From a virus (lineage: Duplodnaviria; Heunggongvirae; Uroviricota; Caudoviricetes), in the IMG/VR virus record IMGVR_UViG_3300038379_000173, positions 64,001 through 128,000 of that record: 64,000 nucleotides of DNA. One strand, 5' to 3'. The notes under the pieces are model-generated. The model had not been told where the DNA came from, ran no database searches, and saw only the letters and a program-made list of their open reading frames with translations. A program made the position numbers and the translations under genes. Of this stretch, positions 567 to 22,563 are shown piece by piece (position 1 is the first letter of the stretch; each line of letters begins with the position of its first letter).

Positions 567-1352
567 TTAATATTGCCCCCTACTCTCTCCGCGTACCATG
601 TGATACGATATAGCATCCCCAGCTATGAAAGAAGGAAAACCCGCCCGCTCATACCTGTCGTGAATGATAACATCGCCCGTGAAGCCTCTTTCAAGGGCTG
701 GCATTGGTCCAAAACGCTTAAACAACTCTTTGGATTGTAGCCAACTTACAGAATCACCACGATAGTGCGGGAATCCAAGTGAAGAATTAAACGCCCCCGG
801 CTTACCTTCCCATCTTTCCATCGCTTCCTTAATGGTGAAAAGCCGCGGCTCCTTTATACTATCACAGAATGATATAAATTCGCCCTCTTTGTAAGTAGCC
901 GCAGTTGTTCCAAAGTCTCGGACATAATGACGTGAGCCGTTGGCTAGTGGACTTTCAATACAATTGAAATTAACAATGCATTCGCGACCTACTACTTTGT
1001 AATGTTCAAGTGCACGTGCAAATGAGCCGGGATAGAATGTCTGGTCACTACCGCCGCGGATTGTGAGTGGCGCTGTGCCCATCAATTGCACACGGTTCCA
1101 AGCATTATAGAGACGCACCAAGAAAGATTGCCGCGGGTCCTCATAAACACATTCATATTCTATGCGATTTAACTTGGCTATCTCTACTAATTTGTCGGTA
1201 ATAGCACGAGGAATGGTCTCGTTGTAGTAAATATAAACATTGAACCTCCAACGTTCACGGTCTATCCCGGCGTTCCTCTGTACGTTGTCGATATGAAACG
1301 CAAAAAGTTCGGGGTCGCGCCCAATGATTGTATTGTAATCAAATTCAGTCAT
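567..1352 (-). CDS. Divergent GT-A fold glycosyltransferase-like protein
   Basis: Pattern resembles GT2: RLYNAWN...IRGGSDQ (DxD-like), W..SKELF.RFG, TGDVIIHDR, YHMVRGE; sits in a GT cluster. Confidence 0.5.
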   Translation of the reverse strand: MTEFDYNTIIGRDPELFAFHIDNVQRNAGIDRERWRFNVYIYYNETIPRAITDKLVEIAKLNRIEYECVYEDPRQSFLVRLYNAWNRVQLMGTAPLTIRGGSDQTFYPGSFARALEHYKVVGRECIVNFNCIESPLANGSRHYVRDFGTTAATYKEGEFISFCDSIKEPRLFTIKEAMERWEGKPGAFNSSLGFPHYRGDSVSWLQSKELFKRFGPMPALERGFTGDVIIHDRYERAGFPSFIAGDAISYHMVRGESRGQY

Positions 1353-2157
1353 AAGACTTCACGCGTCCTTCTTTGATTTCAGAGCGCAACTTTTCAATAC
1401 GACGATTGGCGACTCCAACATTGTGTGTTGTGTGCCACACTCCGGTTAATCTTTCGTGGTCTTGATGTACTACGAAATAGTCACAAGCGCAAATAAACTT
1501 CGCATTCACGACCTGGAGTTTTTGAACAAATTCATCATCTTCCCCAGCCCCAGCTTTATAATCCAACCCGTAGATATCTAATTTATCCAAACAATTCTTT
1601 GAAAAAGCACTTACCTATGGATAATAGTTTTGATTATGGTCTATGTGCCAGGCGTCTTTTTGTACCGCAAAAACTTCGTGCAATTGTAGTAAGGCGGCCC
1701 GCTGTTGTGTTATACGACAAAGATTACTGAACACATATCTATTTATATCACAAAGGGCGGCTATCATCTCCAGATGACGTGAACTACCCCAAAGCATATC
1801 CGCACCAGACTTTATTACATAGTTATATTTCAGATACTCAAAACCTTTGTTATAAGCCCTAGAGCTATTAAGAATGTTATCAAGTGTAGCTCCAGTTGAG
1901 ACTATAGAGACATCTAACCATTTGGGAACAGGCGCTATGTCAAGAAACATTCGGACATTATCTAAATTGTCATTTCCACCATCGTCAACTATAATGAGGT
2001 GAACTGGAATGTCAGCGGCGTTTTCCTGGGCGGCTATCGACCAAAGTGCGCGCAATGCGTTATCTACACGCTTGCAGACCGGCATAATGATATCAAAGCC
2101 AGTAGGGCGCAATTGACCTGGAGGACGTTCTAGACATGTGATGTGGCTAATATGCAT
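1345..2157 (-). pseudogene. GT2-family glycosyltransferase interrupted by one in-frame TAG (1615-1617)
   Basis: ORFs 1615..2157 (IIMPV, IIVDDGG, NKG, GAD) and 1345..1590 (GLDYKAGAGEDDEFVQKL...HQDH) share a frame. The 24 nt between them read openly: YYP*VSAFSKNCLDKLDIYGLD. Confidence 0.75.
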
Positions 2158-3243
2158 CTAAGAATATTTGCCCCAAGCTTTCTGCGCATTACCCAATAAG
2201 ATAGCAACTATTTTGGAAGCAACCTCACGATTGTATGGCGAAGTATCTCCGCTGTGCGAATAATCCGTTGATAATAAGAATTTAGCCGCAGTCACTATAT
2301 CATCATTAACATCAACGAGTATAGTTGAGCGATTTTGAAGAAGTTCAACTCGTTCTGTTTTTTCACGAATTTGTAAACAAGGCACACCAAGCGTATAACA
2401 TTCTTCGGGAACTGTGCCGCTATCAGAAATAACTAAGGCAGCACTATTCATTAGGTTTAGGAATGACAGATATGGTTGTGGTTCTATAATAGTTAGGCGT
2501 CCATATCCATCTTTGGCGGCTTCGCGCAACTTCGGCATTTCGATAATAACAACTGGTATTGCCAAAGATTCACGTAGCTCATTCAATTGTTTCAATATAG
2601 AATTGAGTCGCACCGTGTTTGTAACATTCTCGGCACGATGACATGTAACTAGCACATATTCTTTATGAAGTAATGAGTATGGCAAGATGCTATTTTGTAT
2701 GCGCCATTTATTGCTGAATGTTACATCCACTATGGGATTGCCTACCACCCAGATAGACCGCGAGTCAATATTTTCGCGCAGGAGATTAGCACGATGCTCC
2801 TCTGTATAGCAAAAATGAATGGCCGCCAAGTGGTCCACAACGGTGCGATTTTTTTCTTCTGGCATCTTCCAATTGAAAGAGCGGCCCCCACTTTCGATAT
2901 GAACGATTGGGATGTTGAGATTGGCCGCGACTAACGCTGTGGCCAAACTACTATTGTTGTCGCCCAAAATAACAACAAAGGCCGGCTGCTCGTCCTTCAG
3001 CACCCTTTCAAACTCTACCATTATCCGGCCGATTTGTTCTACTTGAGTGGCCGCCTTAGTCTCCAATCGATAGTTTGGTTCGCGCACACCCAACTGTTCA
3101 TACATTACTTTGTTTAAGTTGTAGTCGTAGTGCTGTCCAGTGTCAACCGTAATATTATTGAACCATTTGTCTAACTCGGCTGTAATGAGGCTAAGTCTAA
3201 TAATGTCTGGTCTGCATCCTATAACGGTGACTATTTTTATCAT
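2158..3243 (-). CDS. UDP-N-acetylhexosamine 2-epimerase (non-hydrolysing; FnlC/WbjD/CapG-like)
   Basis: Motifs VIGCRPDIIRL, TGQHYDY, VILGD, HIESGGRS, MPEEKNR, VVGNP, TCHRAENV, ISDSGTVPEE. Confidence 0.9.
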   Translation of the reverse strand: MIKIVTVIGCRPDIIRLSLITAELDKWFNNITVDTGQHYDYNLNKVMYEQLGVREPNYRLETKAATQVEQIGRIMVEFERVLKDEQPAFVVILGDNNSSLATALVAANLNIPIVHIESGGRSFNWKMPEEKNRTVVDHLAAIHFCYTEEHRANLLRENIDSRSIWVVGNPIVDVTFSNKWRIQNSILPYSLLHKEYVLVTCHRAENVTNTVRLNSILKQLNELRESLAIPVVIIEMPKLREAAKDGYGRLTIIEPQPYLSFLNLMNSAALVISDSGTVPEECYTLGVPCLQIREKTERVELLQNRSTILVDVNDDIVTAAKFLLSTDYSHSGDTSPYNREVASKIVAILLGNAQKAWGKYS

Positions 3244-4097
3244 ACTACTTCCTCGAGTGGGATTTGGTGTCTATCAGAAGCCGCTCTTAATGTTTTCCTA
3301 AACAAATATCTATAACATTGGGGTTTTTGTAGATAATCTAATAATCGGATTACCTGTTTACCACCATATTGCAAACTATACGTGCCATTTGTTGGTCGAA
3401 TTGCAACTCTACCAAGTCCACAAGTTTCTTCTAAGACTGTACGTAAGTCGTGCAAAAAAGATTCAGTACTAGCAATTTCTACTCGTAAAACAACGCCAGA
3501 ACTCGTTCTTTCAAATTTTAAACATCCATTACCATCGTAATAGCCACGAATAAAATGTCGTAAGTTATCCTTATCAAGGATTTTAGTAGGGAAAATACCT
3601 ATTTTTGTTTTGTTCGGCAATATATTGAAATTATTAACTAAATCGCATTTAATCTGTGCATAAGAACAAGAAAAGCGACAAGTCGCCTTATCGGCGTTTA
3701 TTATTGGTTTTACATCTAACTGTATATCTTCCAAAAATTGTTCGAGATGCATGATGTCTTTAACTGATATATCAAGTGTCAAACAGTTACTATCATTATC
3801 AAGACTGCCGTCTGCACTAAGATATCCAGCCCAATAACACGACAATGAATTAAAATGAGAAAAAAAGTTTTCATTAAGCGGACACTTACTAAATTTATAA
3901 CGCATTAAGTTGGCTTCAGAACGAGACCTAATTGGAACTTTTTCTTCTTTCAAAATAATCTTTATCGGAACAATTGAAACGCCAAAATGTAAAGCTATTT
4001 TATCAATTGATAAACCGCTATTATACAAATCACAAACTTCCCGACGAGATTCTTCTGTAAGGAAAAGACGCTTCTGGCGAGCCACATTAAATCTCAA
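3240..4097 (-). mobile_element. Free-standing LAGLIDADG homing endonuclease with N-terminal HTH
   Basis: Two LAGLIDADG-type helices (YWAGYLSADGS; HFIRGYYDGNG), N-terminal HTH (LYNSGLSIDKIALHFGVS), C-terminal YLFRK. True start may be GTG at about 4085. Confidence 0.8.
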
Positions 4098-4124
4098 CTT
4101 TCAGTCTTGTTACAATTTTCCGCT

Positions 4125-4946
4125 TCACTTCCCCATCCATCCTTTAAGGTCAACAAGCATTTCATTGAAACCCTTTGGGGCTAAAGTTGTATTTAATGGA
4201 TGAATGGTCCGCAGTCGCCTATCTATAGGATGAGGCGCAACCACTTCTTTTAGTGAAGCATCAACTGTAAAAAGCTTCAAAATCTTCGATACCATGGAAT
4301 ACTTACTAATATCTTCGGAAAAGATATGCCGTGTGCCAACGACCCAGAGGTTATCTACCATGATATCTCTAATGCACCGTGCCAACTCTAAGGTGGTCAA
4401 TCCATTCCATAGGTGATTATTAAATCCATTGATGTCCTTGCCGCCCTGACTCAATACCCACTCAAAAAATGATGATTTTCTGCCGCGGATTTCTGGCCCA
4501 ATGATACTGGTGCGCAAATTCATACAGTCGGTCGGCTCACCAAGCGCCTTTGATTGTCCGTAGATGTCAGTGGCATCCGCTGGACAGAGTTCCGTATAAA
4601 ACATTGAAGACCCAGAATAGGCGCAATCGCTCGTCACATGGATAAGTTTAGCCCCCAACATACCACAGAGGCGGCTTAAAATCCATGGAAAGACTGCATT
4701 GGTATAAATACACTCTGGCTCATTGCCCGCCTTGAAGACTGGCTTAATAGCCCCAATACAATTGATAACATAGTCAGTATTTCTATCTATATGTCGCGCG
4801 AGCCGCGCCTCTAAAAATGTTGCGCCCGGCCGCACGTCAATGACATCGCGCCCCAACCCTACGACTTCAAAGCGCGCGTCCTTGCGCAAGTAATCCTGGA
4901 CCATATGGCCCAGCATTCCAGTATTGCCCAACACCACCACTTTCAT
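4125..4946 (-). CDS. RmlD-like (dTDP-4-dehydrorhamnose reductase family) SDR
   Basis: GNTGMLG, VINCIG, IHVTSDCAYSG, YGQSKALGE, RTSIIGPE, WNGLTT. Confidence 0.85.
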   Translation of the reverse strand: MKVVVLGNTGMLGHMVQDYLRKDARFEVVGLGRDVIDVRPGATFLEARLARHIDRNTDYVINCIGAIKPVFKAGNEPECIYTNAVFPWILSRLCGMLGAKLIHVTSDCAYSGSSMFYTELCPADATDIYGQSKALGEPTDCMNLRTSIIGPEIRGRKSSFFEWVLSQGGKDINGFNNHLWNGLTTLELARCIRDIMVDNLWVVGTRHIFSEDISKYSMVSKILKLFTVDASLKEVVAPHPIDRRLRTIHPLNTTLAPKGFNEMLVDLKGWMGK

Positions 4947-5428
4947 CGCGGCACCACATTGAAGAAATGAAGGTCAGTATCAGTAAATGGCAACCTAACA
5001 TCGTCTCCGAGAGCTTTCACACTACTCATTGATAGTGTAGAGAAAACCACCAGGATTGTATCGCTAGACAATGACATAGCTCCATTGTACCAACCAGGCG
5101 GCACCCAATAAATGGAAGGTTTGCAAGCTGCCAAAGTAGTTGAAACAACTTCATCTGCGCAGGCCGCCCTGTCTTTTAGGATAGGCTTACACACTATTTT
5201 GGTCGCACCACTCACAACGTGCAGACCAGTCCAAGCGTGAGTGTGACCGTGAAACGCACGAATATAGCCAACCTGCCAGTTGCGCACAACATAGCTTCGT
5301 GTTATAGTCGGTACCGCAATATATTCCTCTCCAACCTTATAAGTCAATGCATCCATCTCATCGATGATGCCGTGAACAACCCCGCGGTCATCCACAAACT
5401 GCGGAAGTTCAATTAGGAACGGTTTCAT
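4943..5428 (-). CDS. Cupin, RmlC/FdtA-like nucleotide-sugar epimerase/isomerase
   Basis: Start refined to ATG 5428 (MKPFLIELPQFVDDRG). Motifs DDRG, IRAFHGH, YWVPPGWYNG. Confidence 0.75.
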   Translation of the reverse strand: MKPFLIELPQFVDDRGVVHGIIDEMDALTYKVGEEYIAVPTITRSYVVRNWQVGYIRAFHGHTHAWTGLHVVSGATKIVCKPILKDRAACADEVVSTTLAACKPSIYWVPPGWYNGAMSLSSDTILVVFSTLSMSSVKALGDDVRLPFTDTDLHFFNVVPR

Positions 5429-6392
5429 ATCTATCCTTGATGTAAAGAGCATTATGATATACTTTATCCCAAAGGTCGGCCACACTTCCACTACGTGCCT
5501 TGGCAGCTAACTCCAAGATACCTTCTTTGAGTGTCTTCATTGGAATGAATCCTGCTGCGGCAGCCTTCTCTGTGCTAACCCTGTAATTTCTAAGGTCTTC
5601 GAACTTATTCTCGGTAATTTCCATGGCTGTAGAGGGGTCTAGATTTAAAGTGTCAATGATAGTCTGGGCTATTTCAAGTACCGTAAAATTGCCACAAGCT
5701 AAATTGTATGTGCCAACACGCGGCCTTATATACCAGCTACTACACCTGACCATTGCATATGCAGCATCTTGAACGTGTAAAAGTGGACGCCATTGCTGGC
5801 CGCCAAAGATTGTTAATTTCTGCCCCTCTACTGCTTTGAAGGTTAGAATATTGGTTACAAGGTCACAACGAAGTCGTCCGAATTCAGCACTGCGACCAAA
5901 AAGCGTACCGAGACGAAAAATATAATGGTTGGGGACTTGACGCACATATTCTTCAGCAGCTAATTTTGTGCCGGCATATAGACTAAGAGGATTAGTTGGA
6001 CTATTTTCATCTATTAATGAGTCGGCCGCGCCATACACGCTACAGGTTGATGCAAAGATAAGCCGCGCCCCTAAACTAGCACATATTTCAGCAATGTTTT
6101 TAGTAGCTACCTCATTAACTGCAACTGTTAGGGTTGGATTAACTGCGCAAGCCCCATCTCCAACAATGGCCGCAAGATGTATGACTTCTTTAACATCATG
6201 TGAGATAAAAAGTTCCTTGAGTTGCTTTGTGTCCCTAACGTCTGCGCGCTTAAAAATCAGGTTGGGATGTTCGCGGTCATACCTCCCACCGTAAAGCAAA
6301 TTGTCTATGGCTAATACCTTATAGTTACATCCTAATGCTAATTTTACTGCACAGTCGCCTAAATACCCAGCCGCGCCTAAAATCGCAATCAT
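5409..6392 (-). CDS. NAD-dependent nucleotide-sugar epimerase/dehydratase
   Basis: Start refined to ATG 6392 (RBS GAGGTTAGGG). GAAGYLG, HLAAIVG, FASTCSVYG, YAGTK, RLGTLFG, WRPLLHVQD. Confidence 0.9.
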   Translation of the reverse strand: MIAILGAAGYLGDCAVKLALGCNYKVLAIDNLLYGGRYDREHPNLIFKRADVRDTKQLKELFISHDVKEVIHLAAIVGDGACAVNPTLTVAVNEVATKNIAEICASLGARLIFASTCSVYGAADSLIDENSPTNPLSLYAGTKLAAEEYVRQVPNHYIFRLGTLFGRSAEFGRLRCDLVTNILTFKAVEGQKLTIFGGQQWRPLLHVQDAAYAMVRCSSWYIRPRVGTYNLACGNFTVLEIAQTIIDTLNLDPSTAMEITENKFEDLRNYRVSTEKAAAAGFIPMKTLKEGILELAAKARSGSVADLWDKVYHNALYIKDRYETVPN

Positions 6393-6574
6393 TTCCCTAA
6401 CCTCTTTAGATGCCACAAGTGTGCCTTTTCTATGTAGGCCGCCAAAATTCCCGCCGTTATTTTCTGCTCTAATAAAATGACAGGGCCGCCGCAAAAACAT
6501 ACAGTAATATACTCTGGGCCAAGTTGGCCGCACCGTAGACACTTACGTATACGCACGCGCACACCATATTGCAA
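6389..6574 (-). CDS. Small putative zinc-ribbon protein
   Basis: CLRCG...CFCGG pattern. Fills an otherwise empty gap, and its TGA overlaps the epimerase ATG (ATGA coupling). Confidence 0.45.
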   Translation of the reverse strand: MQYGVRVRIRKCLRCGQLGPEYITVCFCGGPVILLEQKITAGILAAYIEKAHLWHLKRLGK

Positions 6575-7403
6575 GTATCATAAGGATGAGGCATTGTGCT
6601 ACGACTTTACACAATTCCCTCAGCCACACAATATCATCAGCAGACAACCAAGAATCATCTGGTGGAGATAACATCCCAAGGAGATTTTTGGCCGCCATCT
6701 CCTGTTCTATAGTATCCATTGGAACAAACATTGACATCGAAAATATAGGAAGACGTAATTGTAATTGACCAACCGACAGTACAAATTCATCATCTCCCTT
6801 CGGAACAATTACACGAAATTGGCCCACGGCGTTAAATGCCTCAACTCTTACTAAAACTCCATAAACTTCCTTAGTTGAAGAATCAAAAACACCGCCTCCG
6901 CTATTGCCAAAAACTGCATGACAAACTGTGCGTCCTAATCCTGGTATTGATTCACCTATTACTCCAGGAGAAACCAAAAGTGGTTTACCAAGCGGTGCTC
7001 CGGCGATATGAACTTCTGTGCCAATTTTAGGAATAACTTTAGCGCACATAATGGTGCTTTTAAAATCAATATTAATAGGTTCTATGAATGCAAAGTCGCT
7101 ACGTTCTGAAACATATGCGACTCGTCCATTATACACCCTACGTATATCTCCAAAAAATTCAATTGAAACAACCCTGTCATTCTCTTCTTCTATTTCGCCA
7201 ACAACATGAGCGGCAGTCAGTACGTAGCCGGAAGCTAATAAAACCCCACTCCCAGTCCTATTTTCTTTGCGCACCAAACAAGAAGCATTAACAGTCTCAC
7301 GTTTGGCCGCCACCACTCTACTATATTCAGGCGGCTGGTTTAGATAGATAACAAGAAGGGCTCCAAGCACAGCAGATAATAAAACACTAATGACTTTTTT
7401 CAT
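6543..7403 (-). CDS. Membrane-anchored trypsin-like serine protease
   Basis: Catalytic triad motifs VLTAAHV, SDFAFI, GNSGGGVF; hydrophobic N-terminal and C-terminal helices. Confidence 0.85.
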   Translation of the reverse strand: MKKVISVLLSAVLGALLVIYLNQPPEYSRVVAAKRETVNASCLVRKENRTGSGVLLASGYVLTAAHVVGEIEEENDRVVSIEFFGDIRRVYNGRVAYVSERSDFAFIEPINIDFKSTIMCAKVIPKIGTEVHIAGAPLGKPLLVSPGVIGESIPGLGRTVCHAVFGNSGGGVFDSSTKEVYGVLVRVEAFNAVGQFRVIVPKGDDEFVLSVGQLQLRLPIFSMSMFVPMDTIEQEMAAKNLLGMLSPPDDSWLSADDIVWLRELCKVVAQCLILMILAIWCARAYT

Positions 7404-8139
7404 ATGTAGCCTTCAGTTTCGTAAGTGGCGTTCCAAATATTTCATTGGGCGAAATAGCCGGAATAACGTCGTAAATCCATTCGGGTTGCGTTGCAAGGAC
7501 ACGTAGTGTTGATTCGTCTATGAGACGGTCTAGTGCCCATCCATGCTGGCCATGTGAACGATACAAAAAATACTTACGTAATATGGCTTCTGTTGAAGCA
7601 AAACCCCAATGGATGATTTTAATATCAGACATACGCTCATTATCCGTGGCGCCAATTGGATAGTTAGTACGATGTAGACCACGACCAGGAGCGAATCTCA
7701 AACCGCCCGGAGGTACCACCCATAGCTTGTTAAAAATTCCGCGCCCCCAATCGCCATCAACTCTGTAGAAGGCAGAATGGCGCCAAAGATTGATAAAATG
7801 AAAGGCATAGTTATAAGGACGTTGCGCAAGGTCTCGTAGAAATAAATGTTGACCACTCTCTATTGTTTCATCCGCATCTTGAAACCAAATGCGTGTTGCA
7901 CCTTCTTCAATGGCTCTATCTACCAATAGTTGCTTGTGTGCTGTTTCGTTGGCGAAATCATTCTTAATGCCCCACGTTACCTTGCACCCACATTTCTTAT
8001 ATAGGTCATCTGGAACATCCGTACTACCATCATCATAGATATATATATCATCCACGAAGGTACGCATTGAAGCGAGGGCGCGAACTAAATTACCATTGCC
8101 AACTTCATTGTAAACCTGCATGATGGCGGCTAACTTCAT
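7387..8139 (-). CDS. GT2-like glycosyltransferase (paralog 1)
   Basis: QVYNE, YIYDDGSTD, FQDADE, GLH..NYP, IHWGF. Confidence 0.8.
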   Translation of the reverse strand: MKLAAIMQVYNEVGNGNLVRALASMRTFVDDIYIYDDGSTDVPDDLYKKCGCKVTWGIKNDFANETAHKQLLVDRAIEEGATRIWFQDADETIESGQHLFLRDLAQRPYNYAFHFINLWRHSAFYRVDGDWGRGIFNKLWVVPPGGLRFAPGRGLHRTNYPIGATDNERMSDIKIIHWGFASTEAILRKYFLYRSHGQHGWALDRLIDESTLRVLATQPEWIYDVIPAISPNEIFGTPLTKLKATYEKSH

Positions 8140-8918
8140 ACTTTTTTCACCAGCGGAGTATTAAAAACTTCGCGACCTGGCCCATAAACATAACGCAAAC
8201 AGCTTGGAGAGACTTTTAATGTGCTTTCATCTATCAATCGAGTCAATGCCGCGCCGCTTTGACCATGAGCCTTATACATACGATACTTACGTAAAATAGA
8301 ATCATCAGAAGCGAACCCGTAGTGAGTCACACGAACGCTACTATCTAGTACGCGGTCAATCCCGAATGGATAAAGGCGCTGATGTAATCCACGGCCGACT
8401 TGAAAATTCTTACATGAACTTGCTTTCCAAACTCGACAAAATTGTCCTTGTGCCCACAAACCATCAACCCGTTTAAACCTATCAGTTCTCCACAAATTAT
8501 CTTCATACATAACTAGACCGTCTAAATTCTCATCCCACATACGACGAATTTCGCTATAAAGCGGTCCCAAGTCATTAATGCACTCGTCAATATCCAGCCA
8601 CAAAATAACATCAGGATTGATTGATAAACACTTCTCTAAAGCGCGCTGTTTGTGAGCTAGTTCGTTCTTAAAATCGTTATGCTCCCCACGAATAATAAGA
8701 ATATCACGCAATTGACCCTCGTCACGAACCACCCAAGGAATCCATTTGTCTTCAACGTATTGGACAGAACTATCCGTGCTAGCATCGTCATAGAGAACAA
8801 GAGCGTCGCAATAAGTAGATATATTGCGCATGAAACGCTCTAGGTTGGTTAAACCGTCATGCCCCCTGTAAGTATTTTCGTTAAAACATTGCGCCATACA
8901 CACTATACGCATTGTCAT
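8136..8918 (-). CDS. GT2-like glycosyltransferase (paralog 2)
   Basis: Start refined to ATG 8918. LYDDASTD, WLDIDE, GLHQRLYP, THYGF. Confidence 0.8.
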   Translation of the reverse strand: MTMRIVCMAQCFNENTYRGHDGLTNLERFMRNISTYCDALVLYDDASTDSSVQYVEDKWIPWVVRDEGQLRDILIIRGEHNDFKNELAHKQRALEKCLSINPDVILWLDIDECINDLGPLYSEIRRMWDENLDGLVMYEDNLWRTDRFKRVDGLWAQGQFCRVWKASSCKNFQVGRGLHQRLYPFGIDRVLDSSVRVTHYGFASDDSILRKYRMYKAHGQSGAALTRLIDESTLKVSPSCLRYVYGPGREVFNTPLVKKV

Positions 8919-9793
8919 AGACGAGTAGCAACCTCCACTATCTGGCGCGCACATTGCTCATACGAAAGAGCATTAACAATCTCACGGCCGATTTTCTTCG
9001 AACTAACCATACCTTCGAGAAGTGTCGCCAAATCCTCCACTGACCCTGTCTTGAAAAAATCCACAAGGTCCCTACCATATGTTAATTCATATACCCAACC
9101 CACGTCTGGGGCAATAACCCTGATACCTTTGGCAAGGGCCTCAAGGAAACTAATAGGGCCGCCCTCCCATTTTGAGGGGATTAAGACGTAGTCAACTAGG
9201 TCATACACGATGTTATATTCTGTCGGATATGAGATTTCACTGTCCTTATAGTATAAGCATTCGATGTCGTTAGCGTGGGCTTTATCTATCACCCCCTCCC
9301 AGTCATTCCCAATAAAATGCCAACGAAAATCCCGCGCAACTTCAAAATCAAAAAGTCGCAGCATGAAATCATAGCCCTTACCTTCATACTTGCCGCGCTG
9401 AAAAATTCCAATGCGAGGCTTACGAAACACAAGTGCATCAGGTGTTTCCCATGGACGCATTATGGACATTTTGGAAAGAGGATAAAACTTCGATTCCGCA
9501 AATAAAAATTGATAGCGCTCGGCCATGTGGAAAATGTGGTCAAGGGAAGCTACAACGGGCCGCACCGTTTGTATGTCATCAGCATGCACGTGCGTAAAGA
9601 GTCCTATATCTTTAGTAGACGTTTTGCCCCAGTAACAATTTGAAATATCGCAATAGAAATTTACATCTTCGCGACCAGGTCCATGGGTAAGAGTAAACTG
9701 ACCTAATCCAGCCGCATTGCCGGCATCTACAATGCGACGTGCGATTTGCTGGAGAATCCAGCCACTCTGAACTGTTACAACATTAACTTTCAC
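8915..9793 (-). CDS. GT4-like (GT-B) glycosyltransferase
   Basis: KGYD, DYVLIPSKWEGGPISFLEALAKG...PDVG. Confidence 0.8.
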   Translation of the reverse strand: MKVNVVTVQSGWILQQIARRIVDAGNAAGLGQFTLTHGPGREDVNFYCDISNCYWGKTSTKDIGLFTHVHADDIQTVRPVVASLDHIFHMAERYQFLFAESKFYPLSKMSIMRPWETPDALVFRKPRIGIFQRGKYEGKGYDFMLRLFDFEVARDFRWHFIGNDWEGVIDKAHANDIECLYYKDSEISYPTEYNIVYDLVDYVLIPSKWEGGPISFLEALAKGIRVIAPDVGWVYELTYGRDLVDFFKTGSVEDLATLLEGMVSSKKIGREIVNALSYEQCARQIVEVATRL

Positions 9794-10512
9794 TTGTCAC
9801 CATAGAGTTTGCGAGCTAACTCCTTACACTCATAAGCCGCAGCTTTTTCTTCTGCTTGACGATGGCCACTTATTTGTTTTGGATGAACACGGAAGGCGGC
9901 GAGCACGGCGTTAATCAATCCGAAAGAAGTATACTGGGCGGCCCTAACAACCCATTCGTAATCTTCGCAAATCCTATGCCAGTAGGGGCCAGCTTGCAAC
10001 CACAGCACACGCGTATACATAAAGGACATGCCAATGTCGTAACCCTCAACAAGGTCCTTACCCCTCTGTGGTTGTTGGTGGATAACATCGCGAATTTTCT
10101 TGCCATCCTCAGTCATGAAAGCAAAGTCGCTATAGACTAATTGTATGTTGGCGCCGGCTGCTTTAGCTTGCTCCAACCCGCAATAAAGAACCTCAAGGAA
10201 CTGAGGGAAATAGACGTTATCAGCACTACACCACGTAATGTATTCGCCACGAGCATTTTCGTGTCCGAGATTGAGGGCTGAGCCCGTTCCTCCATTAAGC
10301 TTTTTAAACGTCCTAATGCGTCTATCGAACAAAAACTGATTAATAATCCCTTGTGTGTTGTCGGTCGAGCCATCGTCTACAATTAGAATTTCAAAAGCCC
10401 CAAAGGTTTGTTTGAGTAAACAATCGAGAGTCTGTGCGAGATACTTCTCGCCATTATAGACTGGCACAACAATAGAAACACGAGGATTGTCCTCTAAAAT
10501 AATTTCGCGCAT
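9790..10512 (-). CDS. GT2 glycosyltransferase
   Basis: VSIVVPVYNGEKYL, IVDDGSTD, NGGTGSALNLG, WCSADN, EDYEW. Confidence 0.92.
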   Translation of the reverse strand: MREIILEDNPRVSIVVPVYNGEKYLAQTLDCLLKQTFGAFEILIVDDGSTDNTQGIINQFLFDRRIRTFKKLNGGTGSALNLGHENARGEYITWCSADNVYFPQFLEVLYCGLEQAKAAGANIQLVYSDFAFMTEDGKKIRDVIHQQPQRGKDLVEGYDIGMSFMYTRVLWLQAGPYWHRICEDYEWVVRAAQYTSFGLINAVLAAFRVHPKQISGHRQAEEKAAAYECKELARKLYGDK

Positions 10513-10518
10513 AACGTC

Positions 10519-11775
10519 TTAAAAACTCTTTTCTGTGCTATTCTCAAGAGCACCGAGAGAAGTTTGAGGATTAAGTGTCTGACGCACTGCGTCAAAATAC
10601 CCAGTGCCGACAAACCCCTGATGTTTGTAAGCTCTATAGCCCATAGAGGTTAACATCTTCTCGTTTTGTTGTAGTCGCGAATAACCCAACATGCCATCGT
10701 TTGCAAAATCGTGGGCTAGTGCAAACATATCTTTATTGAGTGAATGGAAACCAGCAAGAGTAACGAAACGAAATTTATAGCCCAGGGTGTTTAGACGCTT
10801 ATCATACTCGACAAGGTCGGCCGGAGTCATTTCTGTCCATTCTTTGAATGACGGGCTCATGTTATAGGCTAGCCACTTCCCAGGAAATCTCTCGTGGATA
10901 GCATTGGCAAATTTCTCTGCGTCTTCCAAGGATGGATTAGAAGTCTCGCACCAAACAACATCGACATATTGGGCAAAAGCTAAAGCTCGCTCAATAGCCC
11001 ACTGGAAACCACCGCGTATTTTGATGAATCCATCGTCGGTTTGTTTTGCGACAGAAAAATGCGTATCGACTTCCTGATACTCAATAAACCTTACATCTGT
11101 TCCGTCTGGAATACAACGAGTAAGAAGACCAGCAGCTTCTGCATCAGTGCGCCCAATAATCACAAGAGGCACATCGCAAATGTCGGCCATTAACCGGGCC
11201 GCTTTTAATTTTTCAATGAATTCCTCAACTGGCACCAACACCTTGCCACCCAAATGTCCACATTTCTTTTCACTACTCAGTTGGTCCTCAAAATGGACAC
11301 CAGCCGCCCCAGCCTTTATCATCCACTTGGTAAGCTCAAAGGCATTCAAAGCGCCGCCAAAACCGGCCTCACAATCAGCAACAAGCGGAATGACGTAAGG
11401 ACGCAATTCGCCATTAATAGAAGTGATTTGTTCTTGACGAACAAGTGCATTGATAATTCCTTCGACCAAACGTGGACAACGGTCGGCAGGATATAAGCTT
11501 TGGTCTGGGTACATATCACCATTAACATCCGCGGCAACTTGCCATCCAGACACATAGCCGGCCTTGAGGCCGCCATCTACCATTTGGACGGCCTGGGCCG
11601 GCGTAGATATTCCAAGGGCACTCACGCCATCTTTTGATGCTAACAGTGAACGTAAAGTCCTAGCGTTGTGACTAGTAAAGGAATAATCATGGCGCATAAA
11701 ACCCCTAAGGCGGTCAACGTCCTTTGAAGACCACGAGCGCTCAGCGTTGCATGTCCACCAATCGTTATCTGACAT
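10519..11775 (-). CDS. aceA: Isocitrate lyase
   Basis: YVSGWQVAAD, MYPDQSLYP, PLVADCEAGFGG, GVHFEDQ, catalytic KKCGH, IIGRTDA, WCET, AYNMSPSF, KHQGFVGTGYFD. Confidence 0.97.
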   Translation of the reverse strand: MSDNDWWTCNAERSWSSKDVDRLRGFMRHDYSFTSHNARTLRSLLASKDGVSALGISTPAQAVQMVDGGLKAGYVSGWQVAADVNGDMYPDQSLYPADRCPRLVEGIINALVRQEQITSINGELRPYVIPLVADCEAGFGGALNAFELTKWMIKAGAAGVHFEDQLSSEKKCGHLGGKVLVPVEEFIEKLKAARLMADICDVPLVIIGRTDAEAAGLLTRCIPDGTDVRFIEYQEVDTHFSVAKQTDDGFIKIRGGFQWAIERALAFAQYVDVVWCETSNPSLEDAEKFANAIHERFPGKWLAYNMSPSFKEWTEMTPADLVEYDKRLNTLGYKFRFVTLAGFHSLNKDMFALAHDFANDGMLGYSRLQQNEKMLTSMGYRAYKHQGFVGTGYFDAVRQTLNPQTSLGALENSTEKSF

Positions 11776-11778
11776 AGT

Positions 11779-13221
11779 TCACCTAGGATTGAATGTCCCA
11801 TTTGTAATAGACTCAAGGGTTATTTTGGCCGCTTCTTTTGCCAACGGAGCATTATCACAGGAATCTAATATTTCTTCTACAGCAGACCCAACGTCGTATT
11901 CACTGTGAACCTTTTGCGCCAAGCGTTGGCCAACCATCAGACGATTGATACGGTCAGTAGCCAAATCTTCCATGTATCCGTCAATCAAAGAAGCTCCGCG
12001 TCCTTCCAATACACCTTGGCGATATAAAATAGAAGTACGCAAAGCCGCCTTTGTTCCTTCAATAGTTACTGGCAAGTGTTCGCGCTCAGGAAAAGCTTTA
12101 AGGTCAGGTCGCAGCCACTCTTCACCTGGTCGCACTTTTAGTTGATTTTTCCTTCTGAAGCATTTAACCGCAATAGCATTTTGGTCAGGATGTCCAGTCC
12201 ACGCCCCGTCCATACCGCAATCAAATTCGTTTTGCTTGTCCGCTTTCAGTCTATCTAGAGCTAGAGTATTAAGCGCTGAATCCTTCCGGGACGGAAATAA
12301 GGCGGTCATGCCGCCAATAGCCAATAGACCATGTGAATGACAGAACTGAACAAGTTGCTTCCGATGATGCTGAAAGAACGTTACGTTGTGCGGAATGGCA
12401 TTACGGTCGGGAAAAATCCAATCGGGCCGCTTGAATGTAAAATGTATGATGGACGCCATGAGGTCCCAGCGCCCAAGGGCAAGTCCAACCAAATAATTCT
12501 TGAGAACCTCACCAAATTTTTCTAGGTGATACGGAAGCGGCATTGATTCTACTAGAGCCATACACTTAATGGTCCCAAGCGGCCATTTCTTTGCTCTCTC
12601 GATGGCTACAAAAGCATCTCGCCACCATTGGCCGTCAAATGTACTCTCGCATTTAGGAATCATTATACATGGGGCGTGAGGTAGTGATTCAAGTGTCATG
12701 TCTCCGAAAATCTCACAGAGGTCATAGAGAGACGCGGGTATTTGTATGTCAACCTTGGCCGCCGTATTGATATATTGGGAGAGGTGTAGACCGCGCGGCC
12801 GAAACCAGACTACGGTACCATTTCCAATTTTAAGTTCACTACTTAAAACCTTCTTTATGTTCTCATGGCCGGCAGTAATCGCACCCCATGTGTTAGCCAC
12901 AGAATCCTCTAGGTCTAACATAACACCAGGGGAACCAGACATAAGAAGTTTGGCGGCCAAATCTAGATTATCGGCCGGCCCAGTCATTTGGTTGCGTTGG
13001 TCTAAAAGCCAGGAGGGCAACGATACCTTCCATTGAGACGGTTCTTCTGCCACTGGATAATCAGGGAGAACATTACGCCAACCTAACAAAAGTTGTTTTG
13101 TGCGAAGGTCATTCAGATGACGCCAACGCCGCCACAGCGCTGTTTTGTCGCGGAGATAAACCCAAAGTCTGGCCGCCCCGCCTTTTATTTGTTCGCTGCG
13201 TGGCATATAATTTGGTTGCAC
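11779..13221 (-). CDS. aceB: Malate synthase (A-type-like)
   Basis: QMTGP, MLDLEDS, RPRGLHL (catalytic Arg), IPKCES, LVES, GRWD, IGGM, KADKQNE, DGAWTGHP, MEDLAT (catalytic Asp). Confidence 0.93.
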   Translation of the reverse strand: MQPNYMPRSEQIKGGAARLWVYLRDKTALWRRWRHLNDLRTKQLLLGWRNVLPDYPVAEEPSQWKVSLPSWLLDQRNQMTGPADNLDLAAKLLMSGSPGVMLDLEDSVANTWGAITAGHENIKKVLSSELKIGNGTVVWFRPRGLHLSQYINTAAKVDIQIPASLYDLCEIFGDMTLESLPHAPCIMIPKCESTFDGQWWRDAFVAIERAKKWPLGTIKCMALVESMPLPYHLEKFGEVLKNYLVGLALGRWDLMASIIHFTFKRPDWIFPDRNAIPHNVTFFQHHRKQLVQFCHSHGLLAIGGMTALFPSRKDSALNTLALDRLKADKQNEFDCGMDGAWTGHPDQNAIAVKCFRRKNQLKVRPGEEWLRPDLKAFPEREHLPVTIEGTKAALRTSILYRQGVLEGRGASLIDGYMEDLATDRINRLMVGQRLAQKVHSEYDVGSAVEEILDSCDNAPLAKEAAKITLESITNGTFNPR

Positions 13222-13222
13222 A

Positions 13223-14233
13223 TTACACCCTTAGAACATTATAGAATGGATGGACAGTTTTCCATGGCCCCAACATCATGAGTGGGATGACTGGAAGGTC
13301 ATGGCCGCCATATACATAGTTACTCGTCCATTGCGCAAAAGTTTTATTAATGTAAGTCTCTTCGTGTTGTTCATACAATGGATGTGTAGTCATTACAGTA
13401 GGATGTTGCCAATTAAACTCCAATATAGTATTTGGGTGCTCCTTATGTTCCACAAACTCAATATATTTTTCGTCAAACTTCTGCGAAGCATTCATCCCAT
13501 CGGATAGAGCAAATTTACGCAACTCGCTCTGATAAAATTCCCTCTTCATCGTATGAAATGCCTTACCCTTGGCATGTCCATAATGGTATACATATAGAGA
13601 TGGGATGAAAAATCGTTTGGTTTGATAATGATTGCTGAAATACGTACAGTGCCCATCTGAGTCGGTTGCGACTGGATGTGTATGGTAACGTAATCCTGGC
13701 CGCCAGCGTAATATTCTTTGATGCCACAAATTCCATTCTGGATGTGGCGCTTTAATATGCCAGAAATCTCTGTAGAAATGTAGGAAGGTGGGAATAAATT
13801 CACTCGCGAGTGGCTGTATTTCTATAGCGCGCCGCAATCTTTCAATAGAACCTTCCATGTAGAATTCATCTACATCACAGATTATATTCCAATCGCCAGG
13901 CCGCCCAACATCCAAGAAAATTTGCTTGCCCTCCTCTAGGGATTTAAAGTGCCGCCGCAGTGTATAGAGTTCAATTTTATTGTGTGGGTCAGGAAAATTC
14001 CGAATGATGTCTAAGGTCCCATCGGTCGAATGACCGTCAGGTGTAGAATGTGGGCGACCCTCAACAGCACCCTCAACTACACGGATGATATCAAATTCAT
14101 CATAGCAATTCCTTAGGTTATATTCTATCCAGTCAGCCTCGTTGTGCGCGGCCACACATTTGACCAACCGTGGGCGCGGCCCATTATAGTTGACACTATC
14201 TATTATATCAGCGACTTGCTTCCTAGGCTGCAT
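13223..14233 (-). CDS. GT2-like glycosyltransferase
   Basis: AAHNEADWI, STDGT, ICDVDE, YHYGH. Confidence 0.8.
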   Translation of the reverse strand: MQPRKQVADIIDSVNYNGPRPRLVKCVAAHNEADWIEYNLRNCYDEFDIIRVVEGAVEGRPHSTPDGHSTDGTLDIIRNFPDPHNKIELYTLRRHFKSLEEGKQIFLDVGRPGDWNIICDVDEFYMEGSIERLRRAIEIQPLASEFIPTFLHFYRDFWHIKAPHPEWNLWHQRILRWRPGLRYHTHPVATDSDGHCTYFSNHYQTKRFFIPSLYVYHYGHAKGKAFHTMKREFYQSELRKFALSDGMNASQKFDEKYIEFVEHKEHPNTILEFNWQHPTVMTTHPLYEQHEETYINKTFAQWTSNYVYGGHDLPVIPLMMLGPWKTVHPFYNVLRV

Positions 14234-15320
14234 GTAGAGCCTCTGTTATTTTAGCAGCTGTGTTAGCCCAAGTAAACTGGCTGGCTGTCTCTCTAGCATT
14301 ATTTACAAGAGTCTCACGTTCTACTACCTTCATCCCATGTGCGCGTTTCATAGCTTCTGCTAATTCCAAAGTTGAGAATGAACACCAAGCACCTTGACCA
14401 TGAAACCATATACCATCATGGGCCGCAACCATTCCAGTAGGTTTAACAAGAATGGTATTAGACTCGCCCATATATTGTGTATGCCCCGAATAGTCCGTCG
14501 CGATACAAGGTTTGCCACACGCCATCATTTCAAGAGGTTCTAGATTCCAGCCCTCGGCATGAGAGGGGAAAATACCCCAGTCAACCTGATTGAACAACAC
14601 GCGTAATTCGCCATGAGTATTAACTCGCGGCAAAATCTTTATATTCTGACCATTCTTACTCGAGATGTATTTAATAGCCCACTGTTCATTGCCAAGGTTG
14701 GCCTTTAGGAATGGATTATCATTGACCATCCACAATTCTACTGGGTCGTTAGGTTCAAATGCGATATTAAATGCATCTAAAAGCTCTTGGTGTCCCTTAC
14801 GCACTTCCCACTTACCAACATTAAGGAAGATAGTTTTATTGCGAGTATGATATGGTCGCGCTTTGGCCGCGACTTCATCTTTATAGAATGTTGTTGTGTC
14901 GACTCCTAGTGGAATAACACTAGTGGGCACATTAATATGGTTAGCGCGCACCACATCTTTTGCCCAATCACTACAGACAAATAGACCATCTACACTTCCA
15001 AGATGATGAAGTTCACGCTCGTCGAACTTGTCCAATTCAAAGATGGGCCAACCAATACGCTTGCCCTTCCCCGGAAACATAGCTAGTTCATTTTGATGCC
15101 AAATACGGATAGACGGGGCGTCTGGAGTATAAAACGCTGCATTTTGTATGCATTTTTGAACAAGCTCAATAGTAGAGCGATTTTTCTCAACTTCAACATT
15201 CCCAATCGGGAAAAGGCTTACTGTATGTCCTTGCTCTACTAGAGCCTTTAGAACGTTTAGTCCAACTACTCCATAGCCCAATTGATTTATTGGCGCAACT
15301 AGGTTTAAGAACATTTCCAA
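14223..15320 (-). CDS. GT4 glycosyltransferase
   Basis: GYGVVG, PLGVD, VGKWEVRKG, FPSHAEGWNLEPLEMMACGKP.IATDYSGH. Confidence 0.9.
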   Translation of the reverse strand: MEMFLNLVAPINQLGYGVVGLNVLKALVEQGHTVSLFPIGNVEVEKNRSTIELVQKCIQNAAFYTPDAPSIRIWHQNELAMFPGKGKRIGWPIFELDKFDERELHHLGSVDGLFVCSDWAKDVVRANHINVPTSVIPLGVDTTTFYKDEVAAKARPYHTRNKTIFLNVGKWEVRKGHQELLDAFNIAFEPNDPVELWMVNDNPFLKANLGNEQWAIKYISSKNGQNIKILPRVNTHGELRVLFNQVDWGIFPSHAEGWNLEPLEMMACGKPCIATDYSGHTQYMGESNTILVKPTGMVAAHDGIWFHGQGAWCSFSTLELAEAMKRAHGMKVVERETLVNNARETASQFTWANTAAKITEALHAA

Positions 15321-16444
15321 AGCTCCCAGTGTTTCTCGATAACATTTAAAAGTTGTAGTCCAACGTGTTGTGGGCTAAATTTAGCTGCACGTCCCTTGCA
15401 AATCGCTTCAAATCTGTTCCAGTCCGATACTTCGCGTGTTTCCCACATAGTATATGCATCGCGCATGCAGGCACGCAAACTATTACAATCTGGCTCAATC
15501 CAGTTTTCATCACCAGTATAAAGATAATCTAGTGGGTGTGGCATATCAAAGACTGGAGATGCCGAACCATCACAAACCCAACCAGCAAATGGTCTAATAA
15601 ATTCACTAGGTCCAGTGCCGTCTACAGCAATAGCTGGGCGACCAAATCCCAGAGCATCAAAATGCGGAACACCCCAACCCTCTCCCCTAGATGGGAGCAC
15701 ATAACAATCGGTACTCTTATATAGAGAGTCTATTTCTTGTGAAGTTGAAACTCCATGGATGATATGAATGGGGGCATATGACTTACGTCGCATAGCAGTC
15801 TTCATCGTCTGAACTAATTGGATGACCTTCTGTTGATGTTCAGGTGTATCGTGTGGGGTAAGGTAGGTTTTAACAACGAGTAGAACATTATCATCCGCAG
15901 AAAATTCAGACAGATAGGCTTTTAGGAGTGCGTCAAATCCCTTCTTTTTGCTAAATTGAAAGATACTAAGAAATTTGAATGCATCATTATGCGAAGGAAA
16001 GAAAATCTTTGGGGCCTGACTGTCAAACCGACCAACTACGTAAGTGTATGGAACAATTTCTACTGGAACTGTTACCCCACTTATTTTGCAAGCTTGCCAA
16101 TTTGCCTTGGTGGGCACAATAACAAGCTGCATGCGATTTAATTCATTGACCCATTGGAGCGGCAACCTATCTGTTTCCCAACAAAACAATCCTACATTAA
16201 AAGCGCCTTCTTTGGCTTCCATCTCATTGGGCGTAGTGTGCTGCAAAATCACATCCACGTCATCTGACGGATAAGCACTAAAACGGTCTAACTGCGCACT
16301 TTGATGGTTACCACCATCATAAAGTAAACACCGAGCCGCCAAAGCACCATCTTCAATGTAGAGGCTCAAAGCATTCAAATAACCGCGCGCAACACTAGCA
16401 TACCCGCTAAAATCCCTGAATGGCGCTATATAGAGAATTTTCAT
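15305..16444 (-). CDS. GT4 glycosyltransferase
   Basis: SGYASVAR, WETD, KKGFDALLKAY, VLPSRGEGWGVPHFDALGFG. Confidence 0.9.
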   Translation of the reverse strand: MKILYIAPFRDFSGYASVARGYLNALSLYIEDGALAARCLLYDGGNHQSAQLDRFSAYPSDDVDVILQHTTPNEMEAKEGAFNVGLFCWETDRLPLQWVNELNRMQLVIVPTKANWQACKISGVTVPVEIVPYTYVVGRFDSQAPKIFFPSHNDAFKFLSIFQFSKKKGFDALLKAYLSEFSADDNVLLVVKTYLTPHDTPEHQQKVIQLVQTMKTAMRRKSYAPIHIIHGVSTSQEIDSLYKSTDCYVLPSRGEGWGVPHFDALGFGRPAIAVDGTGPSEFIRPFAGWVCDGSASPVFDMPHPLDYLYTGDENWIEPDCNSLRACMRDAYTMWETREVSDWNRFEAICKGRAAKFSPQHVGLQLLNVIEKHWELWKCS

Positions 16445-18147
16445 AGTGTCACTGCCCCAATGTTACTGGTCGCCATAGGGGCAAAATCTGCGACTTCAAC
16501 TTCTCCACGTAACCTACAAGAATGACGCCAGCGCACTTCCTCGAAGGTATTTTGTGTGATGATTTGCTCGCGGAAATATTGCTCAACACCGTCACGAGCG
16601 CCACCATTTTGAAGGGTTTTTAACCAATCCTGTAGCCCTTTATTATCAGGGGTGCGGCCTAGTATATTAAAGTAGCACCAAGCCACGAAATCAATATCAC
16701 TGAGTCCTTCTGGGGGATGGCGGGTAGTTAGATGTGACAACGTCGGCGGCTTATCCCAAGTTGTGGTACGGTCATAACATTTCAAATTATCTACAATATA
16801 CATTAATTTGTCAGCAGTTTCTTGCCATGTGTGTTTAGATATAGCAACCGTACGTGCTTCTTTGCCTAGCGTAGCACGTAGTGAATCGTTAAGCGCCAAC
16901 TTTGCCATTTTTGCGGTTAAATCATCAATATCTGGCAGAGAGCGAATAGAAGCTGTCTCCGCTTCGTGGTAGAGACGCTGCACGCGAATTGGTAGCCCAC
17001 CGCCATTCGCTATATGGTCCTCCATAGCAGAATAAGCTTGATACAAGCCTGGGACACCACAAGCCTTAGACTCTGTAATAGGAACCCCCCAACCTTCACA
17101 GATGGCCGGCTGGATATAAACATCAAAAAGATTATAGACCTTACCCATCATCTCAGTAGAGATACCTGCGTGTGTAGATGGCATGTGGGCTGCTATTTCA
17201 CCGCATTCGCGACACTGACGTATTCCCCTCGAATCGCAAGGAGCAAACCAGTCTGCAAATACTTTCTTGCACGCATCACAAGTGTAGGTAAAGATAACAT
17301 GACGTTGGAGTTGAAAGCGCCGCAAATAATCTGGAAGGTCCCAGCCCAAATCAGGCCAACTAGTATGACAATAGAGAACACTATGGTCAATACGCAGCGC
17401 TTCTTTCTCAGAAGCAGAAAGACTCTGGCCGGCCTTAGCCTTCCCTTTAGCTCTCTCTACTACTTGACGAACTGCATACTTGTCACGCAAACGACGGTAA
17501 GCATCAAAAAGGTCAGGGAAGAGTTTGCGCCGCTGATTTCTCATCACTGTACCAAAAACAAATAGAGTTTGTGTGATGTGGAATTCGTCGCGAACGGCAA
17601 CTTTATCCATTGGGCGGAAAACTTCTAAGTCCACCCCCGGAGAGAGAACAGCTTCAACTGGAATACCATCTGCTTCCAAGGTACGTTTGCCGAATAGGCT
17701 GTATGTACACACTACATCAGTTTTCTTATAGATATTTTCTATCCAGTCGCGACGCTGCGGGGCCGAATCTACAGTGGAGCACCAAATGTATTTGAAATTG
17801 TTCCTAAACCTTGAATTGACAACATGTTGTTCCATCCAAGGGTCTCTAAATCCTATCACATGGTCTGGTTGCCAATCTGCAAGTACCGCATCTATTTTAT
17901 ACGCACCGAAATGGTTAGCCTCATTTCCCTTATAAATTTTAGCTTCCTGCTCATTTACTGGGAGATTACCATAGAATTTCCATGGGAGTGCCTTAGACTC
18001 CTTGCAGACTGAAGCCCATGAACCAAATTCGGCCACCTCATACTTTCCAGTAGCATGAAGCGCGCGGAGCATTTCGCGCTGAAAAACACTGAAGCCTGTT
18101 GCTAAAAATGAAGCCTCGCCGCTAAATAGTAATCTTTTCTTTTTCAT
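16441..18147 (-). CDS. GT4 glycosyltransferase with Cys-rich insertion and C-terminal DUF4214-like domain
   Basis: TGFS, PGVD, RNQRRK, QPAICEGWGVP.TESKACG; CxxC...CxxC insertion; C-terminal FVAWCYFNILGRTPDNKGLQDW resembles DUF4214. Confidence 0.85.
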   Translation of the reverse strand: MKKKRLLFSGEASFLATGFSVFQREMLRALHATGKYEVAEFGSWASVCKESKALPWKFYGNLPVNEQEAKIYKGNEANHFGAYKIDAVLADWQPDHVIGFRDPWMEQHVVNSRFRNNFKYIWCSTVDSAPQRRDWIENIYKKTDVVCTYSLFGKRTLEADGIPVEAVLSPGVDLEVFRPMDKVAVRDEFHITQTLFVFGTVMRNQRRKLFPDLFDAYRRLRDKYAVRQVVERAKGKAKAGQSLSASEKEALRIDHSVLYCHTSWPDLGWDLPDYLRRFQLQRHVIFTYTCDACKKVFADWFAPCDSRGIRQCRECGEIAAHMPSTHAGISTEMMGKVYNLFDVYIQPAICEGWGVPITESKACGVPGLYQAYSAMEDHIANGGGLPIRVQRLYHEAETASIRSLPDIDDLTAKMAKLALNDSLRATLGKEARTVAISKHTWQETADKLMYIVDNLKCYDRTTTWDKPPTLSHLTTRHPPEGLSDIDFVAWCYFNILGRTPDNKGLQDWLKTLQNGGARDGVEQYFREQIITQNTFEEVRWRHSCRLRGEVEVADFAPMATSNIGAVTL

Positions 18148-22552: not shown

Positions 22553-22563
22553 TATCTGCCTTC

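Follow-up and report, generated by a model that had tools for sequence, protein, structure and literature searches.

The DNA stretch analyzed here (the window, 64,000 nt) comprises bases 64001-128000 of the linear 167,041-bp IMG/VR virus record IMGVR_UViG_3300038379_000173, for which CheckV estimates a completeness of ~91%. It contains an adjacent pair of genes for the glyoxylate-shunt enzymes malate synthase (MS, aceB) and isocitrate lyase (ICL, aceA), located within an operon of glycan biosynthesis. The pair, its immediate neighbors, and the surrounding operon are arranged as follows:

11779..13221, minus strand: aceB-like MS, 480 aa with a GTG start at 13221; Pfam MS_TIM-barrel
10519..11775, minus strand: aceA ICL, 418 aa, canonical bacterial type; TIGR01346 score above the cut-off
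13223..14233, minus strand: conserved 336-aa GT2-like gene with a weak Glyco_tranf_2_4 match; upstream border of a variable junction
9790..10512, minus strand: GT2 glycosyltransferase (Pfam Glycos_transf_2, 104.8 bits); downstream border of the variable junction
567..18147, minus strand: glycan-biosynthesis operon (context), outlined by Pfam matches and by synteny with the related loci L003, L005, L008, L098, and L100-L108

All sizeable open reading frames (ORFs) of the window lie on the minus strand. The glycan operon is located directly downstream of ssb and a split DnaE polymerase gene, and it includes GT4 and GT2 glycosyltransferases, a trypsin-like protease, RmlB/RmlC/RmlD-like genes, and a UDP-GlcNAc 2-epimerase. 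In total, sugar genes occupy ~26 kb of the phage genome. The phage replication genes found nearby encode the split DnaE-type polymerase, SSB, a DnaB-like helicase, and a UvsX-like recombinase.

The three junctions, read directly from the letters, are TAA-t-GTG between the 336-aa gene and MS (1 nt), TGA-act-ATG between MS and ICL (3 nt), and TAA-gacgtt-ATG between ICL and the GT2 gene (6 nt). These spacings agree with those given in a sequence-only reading of the window, and its placement of the pair on the phage strand between glycosyltransferase genes was confirmed. Since the gaps are only 1-6 nt, aceBA is very likely co-transcribed with the glycan operon. A scan of the sequence for consensus promoters and terminators gave site counts not above those in shuffled sequence. 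The GTG start of MS at 13221 carries the caveat that an alternative ATG at 13206 yields a 475-aa protein, the same length as in the database gene call.

Identity of the two enzymes

Profile, motifs, and alignment identify the 418-aa protein as an isocitrate lyase of canonical type. It matches Pfam PF00463 with 266.6 bits (cut-off 26) and TIGR01346 with 406.5 (cut-off 275.9). Its alignment with solved ICLs spans the full length (E 1e-120), and it is ~50-57% identical both to these and to thousands of cellular ICLs. The motifs KKCGH with the active-site Cys, SGWQ, D-x-E-AGFGG, HxEDQ, RTDA, WCET, NxSPSF, and TLAGFH are all kept, and the same catalytic, Mg, and substrate motifs are shared by the phage and cellular relatives of the protein. 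The prpB models score 81-99 bits, compared with cut-offs of ~353. This is indirect evidence that the protein is not a methylisocitrate lyase, and isocitrate cleavage is its predicted activity.

The only Pfam match of the MS is to the malate synthase TIM-barrel PF01274 (145.4 bits, cut-off 26.4). The protein can be aligned with malate synthase A (MSA) of E. coli and B. anthracis, its identity to canonical MSA being ~30-35%. Its catalytic residues R143 (RPRG) and D419 (MED) and Mg ligands E225 and D253 align with residues R166, D447, E250, and D278, respectively, of E. coli MSA (3CUZ), and all of them are kept across the near clade. The AlphaFold model (pLDDT 90.8, pTM 0.91) matches the MSA structures 3CV2, 3CUZ, and 3CUX with Foldseek TM of 0.80-0.84 over ~525 columns, i.e., the whole chain, and the structures of MSG match it less well. 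The model thus has the MSA fold over its entire length, including the C-terminal plug domain. Alignment, profiles, and the MS model together bear out the sequence-only reading in its description of two full-length enzymes with an intact KKCGH motif, RPRG Arg, and MED Asp.

A phage-specific, perhaps neofunctionalized, MS clade was first suspected, as the score of the protein for TIGR01344 is below the cut-off and only a few matches reached 40-57% identity. This candidate was rejected, since at least 573 bacterial species in GTDB have an MS of the same subfamily in ordinary aceBA operons, mostly with ICL beside MS. The carriers belong mainly to Acidobacteriota, Eremiobacterota (listed as Vulcanimicrobiota), Eisenbacteria, Verrucomicrobiota, and Gemmatimonadota. 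Their MSs are 46-56% identical to that of the window, and the adjacent ICLs are 50-54% identical to the window ICL; in one bacterial locus (L015), a gene for an IclR regulator is located upstream of aceBA. The low TIGR01344 score is explained by the membership of the window MS in this divergent MSA subfamily of soil bacteria. Judged by its sequence, the window MS is a normal aceB of a less-studied type and not a phage invention.

Loss of active-site residues was observed elsewhere among MS relatives. The 71-kb phage contig L017 encodes (10001-12795) an intact-looking ICL together with the MS relative P0131, in which the catalytic Asp is replaced by Gly ("MEG"). In another relative, P0134, both the catalytic Asp and the GRWD metal motif are lost. 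These two MS-like proteins may be inactive or differ in function.

Residence, distribution, and origin of the pair

Relatives of the locus in IMG/VR were found by alignment-based scans, single-sequence scans giving none. The gene order common to the relatives is SSB, GT-DUF4214, GT4, GT4, the 336-aa gene, MS, ICL, GT2, trypsin-like protease, Rml-like, and 2-epimerase. It is shared by L003/L004 from two Logan runs (ICL 78% identical to the window ICL), L005/L006 from ENA and Logan (54%), L008 (56%), L098 (55%), and L010/L104 (an IMG/VR contig whose sequence stops just past MS). The same junctions were found in five or more samples or assemblies that are independent of one another, and the pair is reproducibly flanked on both sides by phage genes in a phage genome, as is characteristic of a phage auxiliary metabolic gene (AMG).

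GATC sites are absent from the entire 64-kb window (0 vs. 191.5 expected), and thus from the pair, as the sequence-only reading had noticed. None were found in aceBA or in the whole loci (15-21 kb each) of the four relatives tested (L003, L005, L008, and L098), whereas cellular aceBA pairs contain 13-37 sites. Two other phages do have GATC sites, namely the huge phage L011 (77 sites) and the L017 phage (205 sites).

In the comparison of the window with L003, pN is 0.19 for MS and 0.15 for ICL, and pS is 0.76-0.80; both pN and pS match those of the flanking glycosyltransferases. Saturation of the synonymous sites leaves only pN and pS usable, a numerical dN/dS being unobtainable. Both MS and ICL are under purifying selection, and between relatives aceBA has diverged in step with the glycosyltransferase genes beside it.

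The record is a linear metagenomic contig, and one "viral" IMG/VR contig with this type of MS (L009) looks cellular, so that a chimeric assembly or host contamination joining a bacterial aceBA to phage DNA has to be considered. Such an artefact is exceedingly improbable. Chimeric assembly is rejected because the junctions recur in independent assemblies, and an artefact of either kind is further contradicted by the absence of GATC from the pair and its phage-like GC content, by the parallel divergence of aceBA and the flanking phage genes, and by the formation of separate clades by the phage MS and ICL sequences. The pair is a long-term, ameliorated resident of the phage, chimera and recent contamination being excluded; the recurring junctions and the absence of GATC uphold the earlier proposal of long residence.

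The L009 contig (IMGVR_UViG_3300047163_000092) encodes an MS that is 70% identical to an MS of Eremiobacterota (listed as Vulcanimicrobiota). Its many ORFs overlap, as is typical of high-GC DNA, and no phage-like neighbors occur within 11 kb; the contig probably derives from a cellular genome or from the flank of a prophage.

Among 50,697 GenBank phage records, no match to the region was found by megablast, and tblastn searches with MS retrieved nothing but fragments of bacterial or transduced DNA entered under phage. A similar search with ICL identified one real phage, C48C1, which has ICL alone. The glycosyltransferase that leads the operon has no counterpart in the same set of records, and the cultured-phage matches of the DnaE polymerase are only ~35% identical.

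The distribution of the pair was assessed using this lead gene, GT-DUF4214, which has at least 572 relatives in IMG/VR; 80 of their loci were fetched. Ten of the 80 loci were near relatives (at least 48% identity), nine of them with enough downstream sequence to judge. Eight of these nine (L100-L103 and L105-L108) keep the glycan gene order (GT4, GT4, 336-aa gene, GT2, trypsin-like, Rml-like) but encode neither MS nor ICL. The 336-aa gene directly adjoins the GT2 gene in L100, L101, and L103, whereas in L105-L108 the gap at the junction is filled by unrelated small genes (methyltransferase-like, PD-(D/E)XK nuclease, VWA-like, and unknowns). The 336-aa gene is present in every relative from the family, and orthologs of the GT2 border gene are present in all near relatives. 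A third state of the junction is represented by a 170.6-kb contig of the same family, which has ICL alone at this position.

On a backbone tree built from three flanking proteins, the aceBA-positive phages are scattered, with L005 being a sister of the aceBA-negative L102 (100/99 support), and at least 3-4 gains or losses of aceBA are required. The junction is a variable hotspot holding an optional cassette, and the aceBA pair is accessory and not required by the glycan operon. Obligatory coupling of the shunt with the glycan pathway was rejected, as relatives carry the same operon without MS and ICL. Since most relatives run the operon without it, the cassette is linked with glycosylation by its position and perhaps through regulation.

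In the MS tree, rooted on canonical MSA, the phage proteins group together (SH-aLRT 95-96) within the soil-bacterial subfamily, in a single clade that includes MSs from the window, L003, L005, L008, L010, and the 370-kb huge phage L011, the latter being a sister of MSs of the window's phage family. In the ICL tree, the ICLs of the family fall into a 99%-supported clade of metagenome sequences only, separate from the bacterial ICL neighbors of the MS subfamily; several members of the clade, when looked up, proved to belong to the same phage family. Both trees are read most simply if a bacterial aceBA unit was captured long ago and then passed down within phages. The pair was probably taken up as a unit from a bacterium with an aceBA operon of the Acidobacteriota/Eremiobacterota type. 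The pair thus combines a cellular origin with a patchy, accessory distribution among related phages, as expected for AMGs.

Known shunt genes of phages and the role of the cassette

The sequence-only reading had placed viral glyoxylate-shunt genes mainly in eukaryotic giant viruses and proposed the locus as a candidate for an undescribed system. Neither statement can be retained, as tailed phages with such genes have been published and phage aceBA pairs are already on record. A 2013 study of ocean viromes reported both aceA and aceB (PMC4053976). An aceBA operon was described in the complete 179-kb genome of the marine phage TARA_ERS478052_N000008 and interpreted as a glyoxylate-shunt AMG, the presence of sugar-biosynthesis genes also being noted (Nishimura et al., 2017; PMC5332604). 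For huge phages, a 2025 preprint reports 98 ICL and 22 MS genes, adjacent in 20 genomes (bioRxiv 10.1101/2025.02.27.640493). In our scan of IMG/VR, at least 427 contigs encode an ICL relative. A search for co-occurring aceA and aceB, as had been suggested, showed that the pair itself is widespread: in 31 of the best 80 IMG/VR ICL loci, a canonical MSA gene lies next to ICL, again with MS first. The glycan setting did not recur in this search, as none of the 80 loci share the glycan operon of the window.

The TARA phage resembles the phage studied here in that its tailed-phage genome is of similar size, MS is followed by ICL on one strand, and sugar genes of lipopolysaccharide or capsule type are present. 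The two phages differ in the type of MS, which in the TARA phage is a canonical MSA (TIGR01344 E 2.7e-215) and in the window belongs to the soil-bacterial subfamily (206 bits, below the cut-off). They also differ in gene context: the TARA pair is located among small hypothetical genes, with glycosyltransferases ~15 kb off, whereas the window pair lies inside a glycosyltransferase operon. The differences in MS type and context argue for an independent acquisition in a different phage lineage. The huge-phage collection shows the same predominance of ICL over MS and the same adjacency of both genes when they co-occur, comparable with the ICL-only relative and the adjacent pair found here. With its 167-kb genome the phage of the window is below the 200-kb threshold of that collection, and placement at a hotspot inside a glycan operon is not mentioned in the available part of the text. 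Compared with the bacterial aceBA(K) operons under IclR (E. coli AceB/AceA and the L015 type), the enzymes and catalytic residues are the same, and the MS-then-ICL order is common to the window pair and many Acidobacteriota aceBA operons. In contrast to its bacterial counterparts, the phage pair lacks IclR and AceK, its spacer is shrunk to 3 nt, GATC is purged, and the genes reside inside a phage operon. Branch-point control of the aceBAK type is not apparent, given that AceK has no match in the 167-kb record and no regulator is encoded beside the pair.

One fused arrangement of the enzymes and a candidate for another were observed. On the 212.8-kb contig L007 (10001-12664), an 887-aa MS-ICL fusion adjoins a sugar nucleotidyltransferase gene; its MS half is 45% identical to the window MS, and its ICL half belongs to another ICL subfamily (29%). 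This fusion provides independent support for the two enzymes acting together. In L070, a metagenome-assembled genome of Eremiobacterota, a 1193-aa open frame (about 4669-7401) extends across the ICL and MS matches; it may be an ICL-MS fusion of cellular origin or simply an artefact of reading through high-GC DNA.

The aceB-aceA pair is probably a functional, host-derived accessory AMG cassette for the glyoxylate shunt, long resident in an uncultured phage family with genomes of ~165-180 kb. We infer that the genes are expressed and the enzymes active, with an effect on metabolic flux and a fitness benefit for the phage. ICL would split isocitrate to succinate and glyoxylate, and MS would condense glyoxylate with acetyl-CoA to yield malate, so that the tricarboxylic acid cycle's two CO2-releasing steps would be bypassed and carbon conserved during infection. 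The resulting increase in the supply of C4 compounds could serve biosynthesis (aspartate and pyrimidines, phosphoenolpyruvate, and gluconeogenesis), all steps after malate being left to the host. Expression of aceBA would ride on an early or middle operon that encodes the glycan machinery.

Several observations weigh against this assignment. The MS score for TIGR01344 (206.5) is far under the equivalog cut-off of 594.5, and the ICL score for NF011645 (509) is slightly under the cut-off of 562; judged by sequence, the enzymes may have an altered specificity. The stem leading to the window and L003 is long in both the MS and ICL trees, which points to accelerated evolution. Further, the position of the cassette within the glycosyltransferase block is identical in relatives down to 50-56% identity, and in the huge phage L011, which is not related, MS-ICL likewise lies among genes for sugar modification; the fixed position and the L011 context leave room for a tighter tie to glycan synthesis.

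The low MS score and the long stems, along with the patchy distribution and repeated loss of the pair and the loss of the catalytic Asp in some phage MS relatives (P0131 of L017 with "MEG", and P0134), would fit a decaying or neofunctionalized passenger, in which at least one of the two enzymes has ceased to carry out its shunt reaction and is heading for loss. We regard this as very unlikely, since the catalytic and metal residues are intact in the window and the near clade, the open frames are full length, purifying selection is strong and equal to that on the neighboring genes, and the MS model has a confident MSA fold.

The tie to glycan synthesis was the central proposal of the sequence-only reading, according to which the shunt and the glycosyltransferases form a coupled module of supply and use, converting host acetyl-CoA via C4 compounds to hexose phosphates for phage nucleotide-sugar and glycan synthesis. 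As an obligatory unit this module is not maintained, given the eight of nine relatives without the pair, the ICL-only relative, the hotspot, and the lack of bridging enzymes. In a less strict form it is possible but rather unlikely. It is favored by the likely co-transcription across gaps of 1-6 nt, by the ~26 kb of sugar genes, and by the retention of the position within the glycosyltransferase block in relatives at 50-78% identity. Similar contexts occur in L011, where MS-ICL lies among GT2, DegT aminotransferase, and GT1 genes, and in L007, where the fusion adjoins the sugar nucleotidyltransferase. On the other side, the glycan operon usually lacks the pair in the nearest relatives, and the junction is a general site of insertion. 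Between malate and hexose, no PEPCK, FBPase-II (class II), IDH, or AceK was found in the 167-kb phage record, and any malate-to-hexose route would therefore be entirely that of the host. Moreover, shunt genes have unrelated contexts in the TARA phage, in L017 (ICL/MS beside RNA-ligase, ClpP, and other genes), in phage C48C1, and in the 80 IMG/VR ICL loci. A supply role for sugar nucleotides is possible.

In a related reading, the cassette would be tuned to the glycan operon, the shunt being co-expressed with about ten glycosyltransferases in the aceBA-positive members of the family; we consider this unlikely. Were it true, cells growing on C2 or lipid-derived carbon would still supply hexose and hexosamine nucleotides for the phage-directed glycan, the operon would unite supply and consumption, and presence or absence of the pair would track the carbon niche of the host.

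The embedding of the pair among GT4 and GT2 genes also suggests a building-block role, in which glyoxylate, malate, or succinate is attached to the glycan, or used as an acceptor, by a neighboring transferase. The GT4 enzyme BshA, which glycosylates L-malate as an acceptor, is a precedent for this role, and the ICL-only variant shows that the products of ICL alone can be what is kept. Nevertheless, such a role is highly improbable: relatives have the same transferase set without both enzymes, the synteny table shows no transferase whose presence follows that of the cassette, both enzymes retain the canonical active sites of their orthologs from central metabolism, and malate and succinate are abundant in the host anyway.

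Glyoxylate-shunt genes of phages are among the clearer cases of viral central-carbon enzymes. To the known cases the accessory cassette adds a third kind of carrier, namely an uncultured phage family of ~165-180 kb genomes with no cultured relatives, and a second donor lineage, represented by the soil-bacterial type of MS. It further provides a natural series in which a single fixed junction of an otherwise conserved operon holds the pair, ICL alone, or nothing. This series of presence and absence constitutes a comparative design for establishing what the shunt buys a phage, and it lends support to the idea that selection acts on ICL and that its partner MS is optional.

Additional features of the glycan operon and its surroundings

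The DnaE-type polymerase upstream of the glycan operon (18845-25313, minus strand) is split: one part is encoded at 23415-25313 and the other at 18845-21241, and three small ORFs separate them. The second part (798 aa) contains an HNH and intein-type insert. Its homolog in L003 has a Pfam Intein_splicing match, and in the 539-aa homolog from L005 the insert is absent.

A LAGLIDADG-like homing-endonuclease ORF (3240-4097, minus strand) is located between the genes for UDP-GlcNAc 2-epimerase and the RmlD-like protein. It is absent at the same spot in L003, and the relatives have GIY-YIG or HNH genes elsewhere in the operon. Mobile inserts are thus scattered over the glycan operon.

The neighboring genes at 7387-8954 (minus strand), which encode 250 and 272 aa, are paralogs, as seen from cross-matching through L003 at 33-42% identity. 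They have no Pfam match in the window, and their counterparts in the relatives match GT2 weakly; the operon therefore probably holds two glycosyltransferases beyond those detected by Pfam.

Finally, the RmlB-like ORF (5409-6542, minus strand; 377 aa with a GTG start) has an 83-nt overlap with the next gene, and its Pfam match begins at residue 52. Since the orthologs are 317-331 aa long, the true start is probably located ~45 codons further in.

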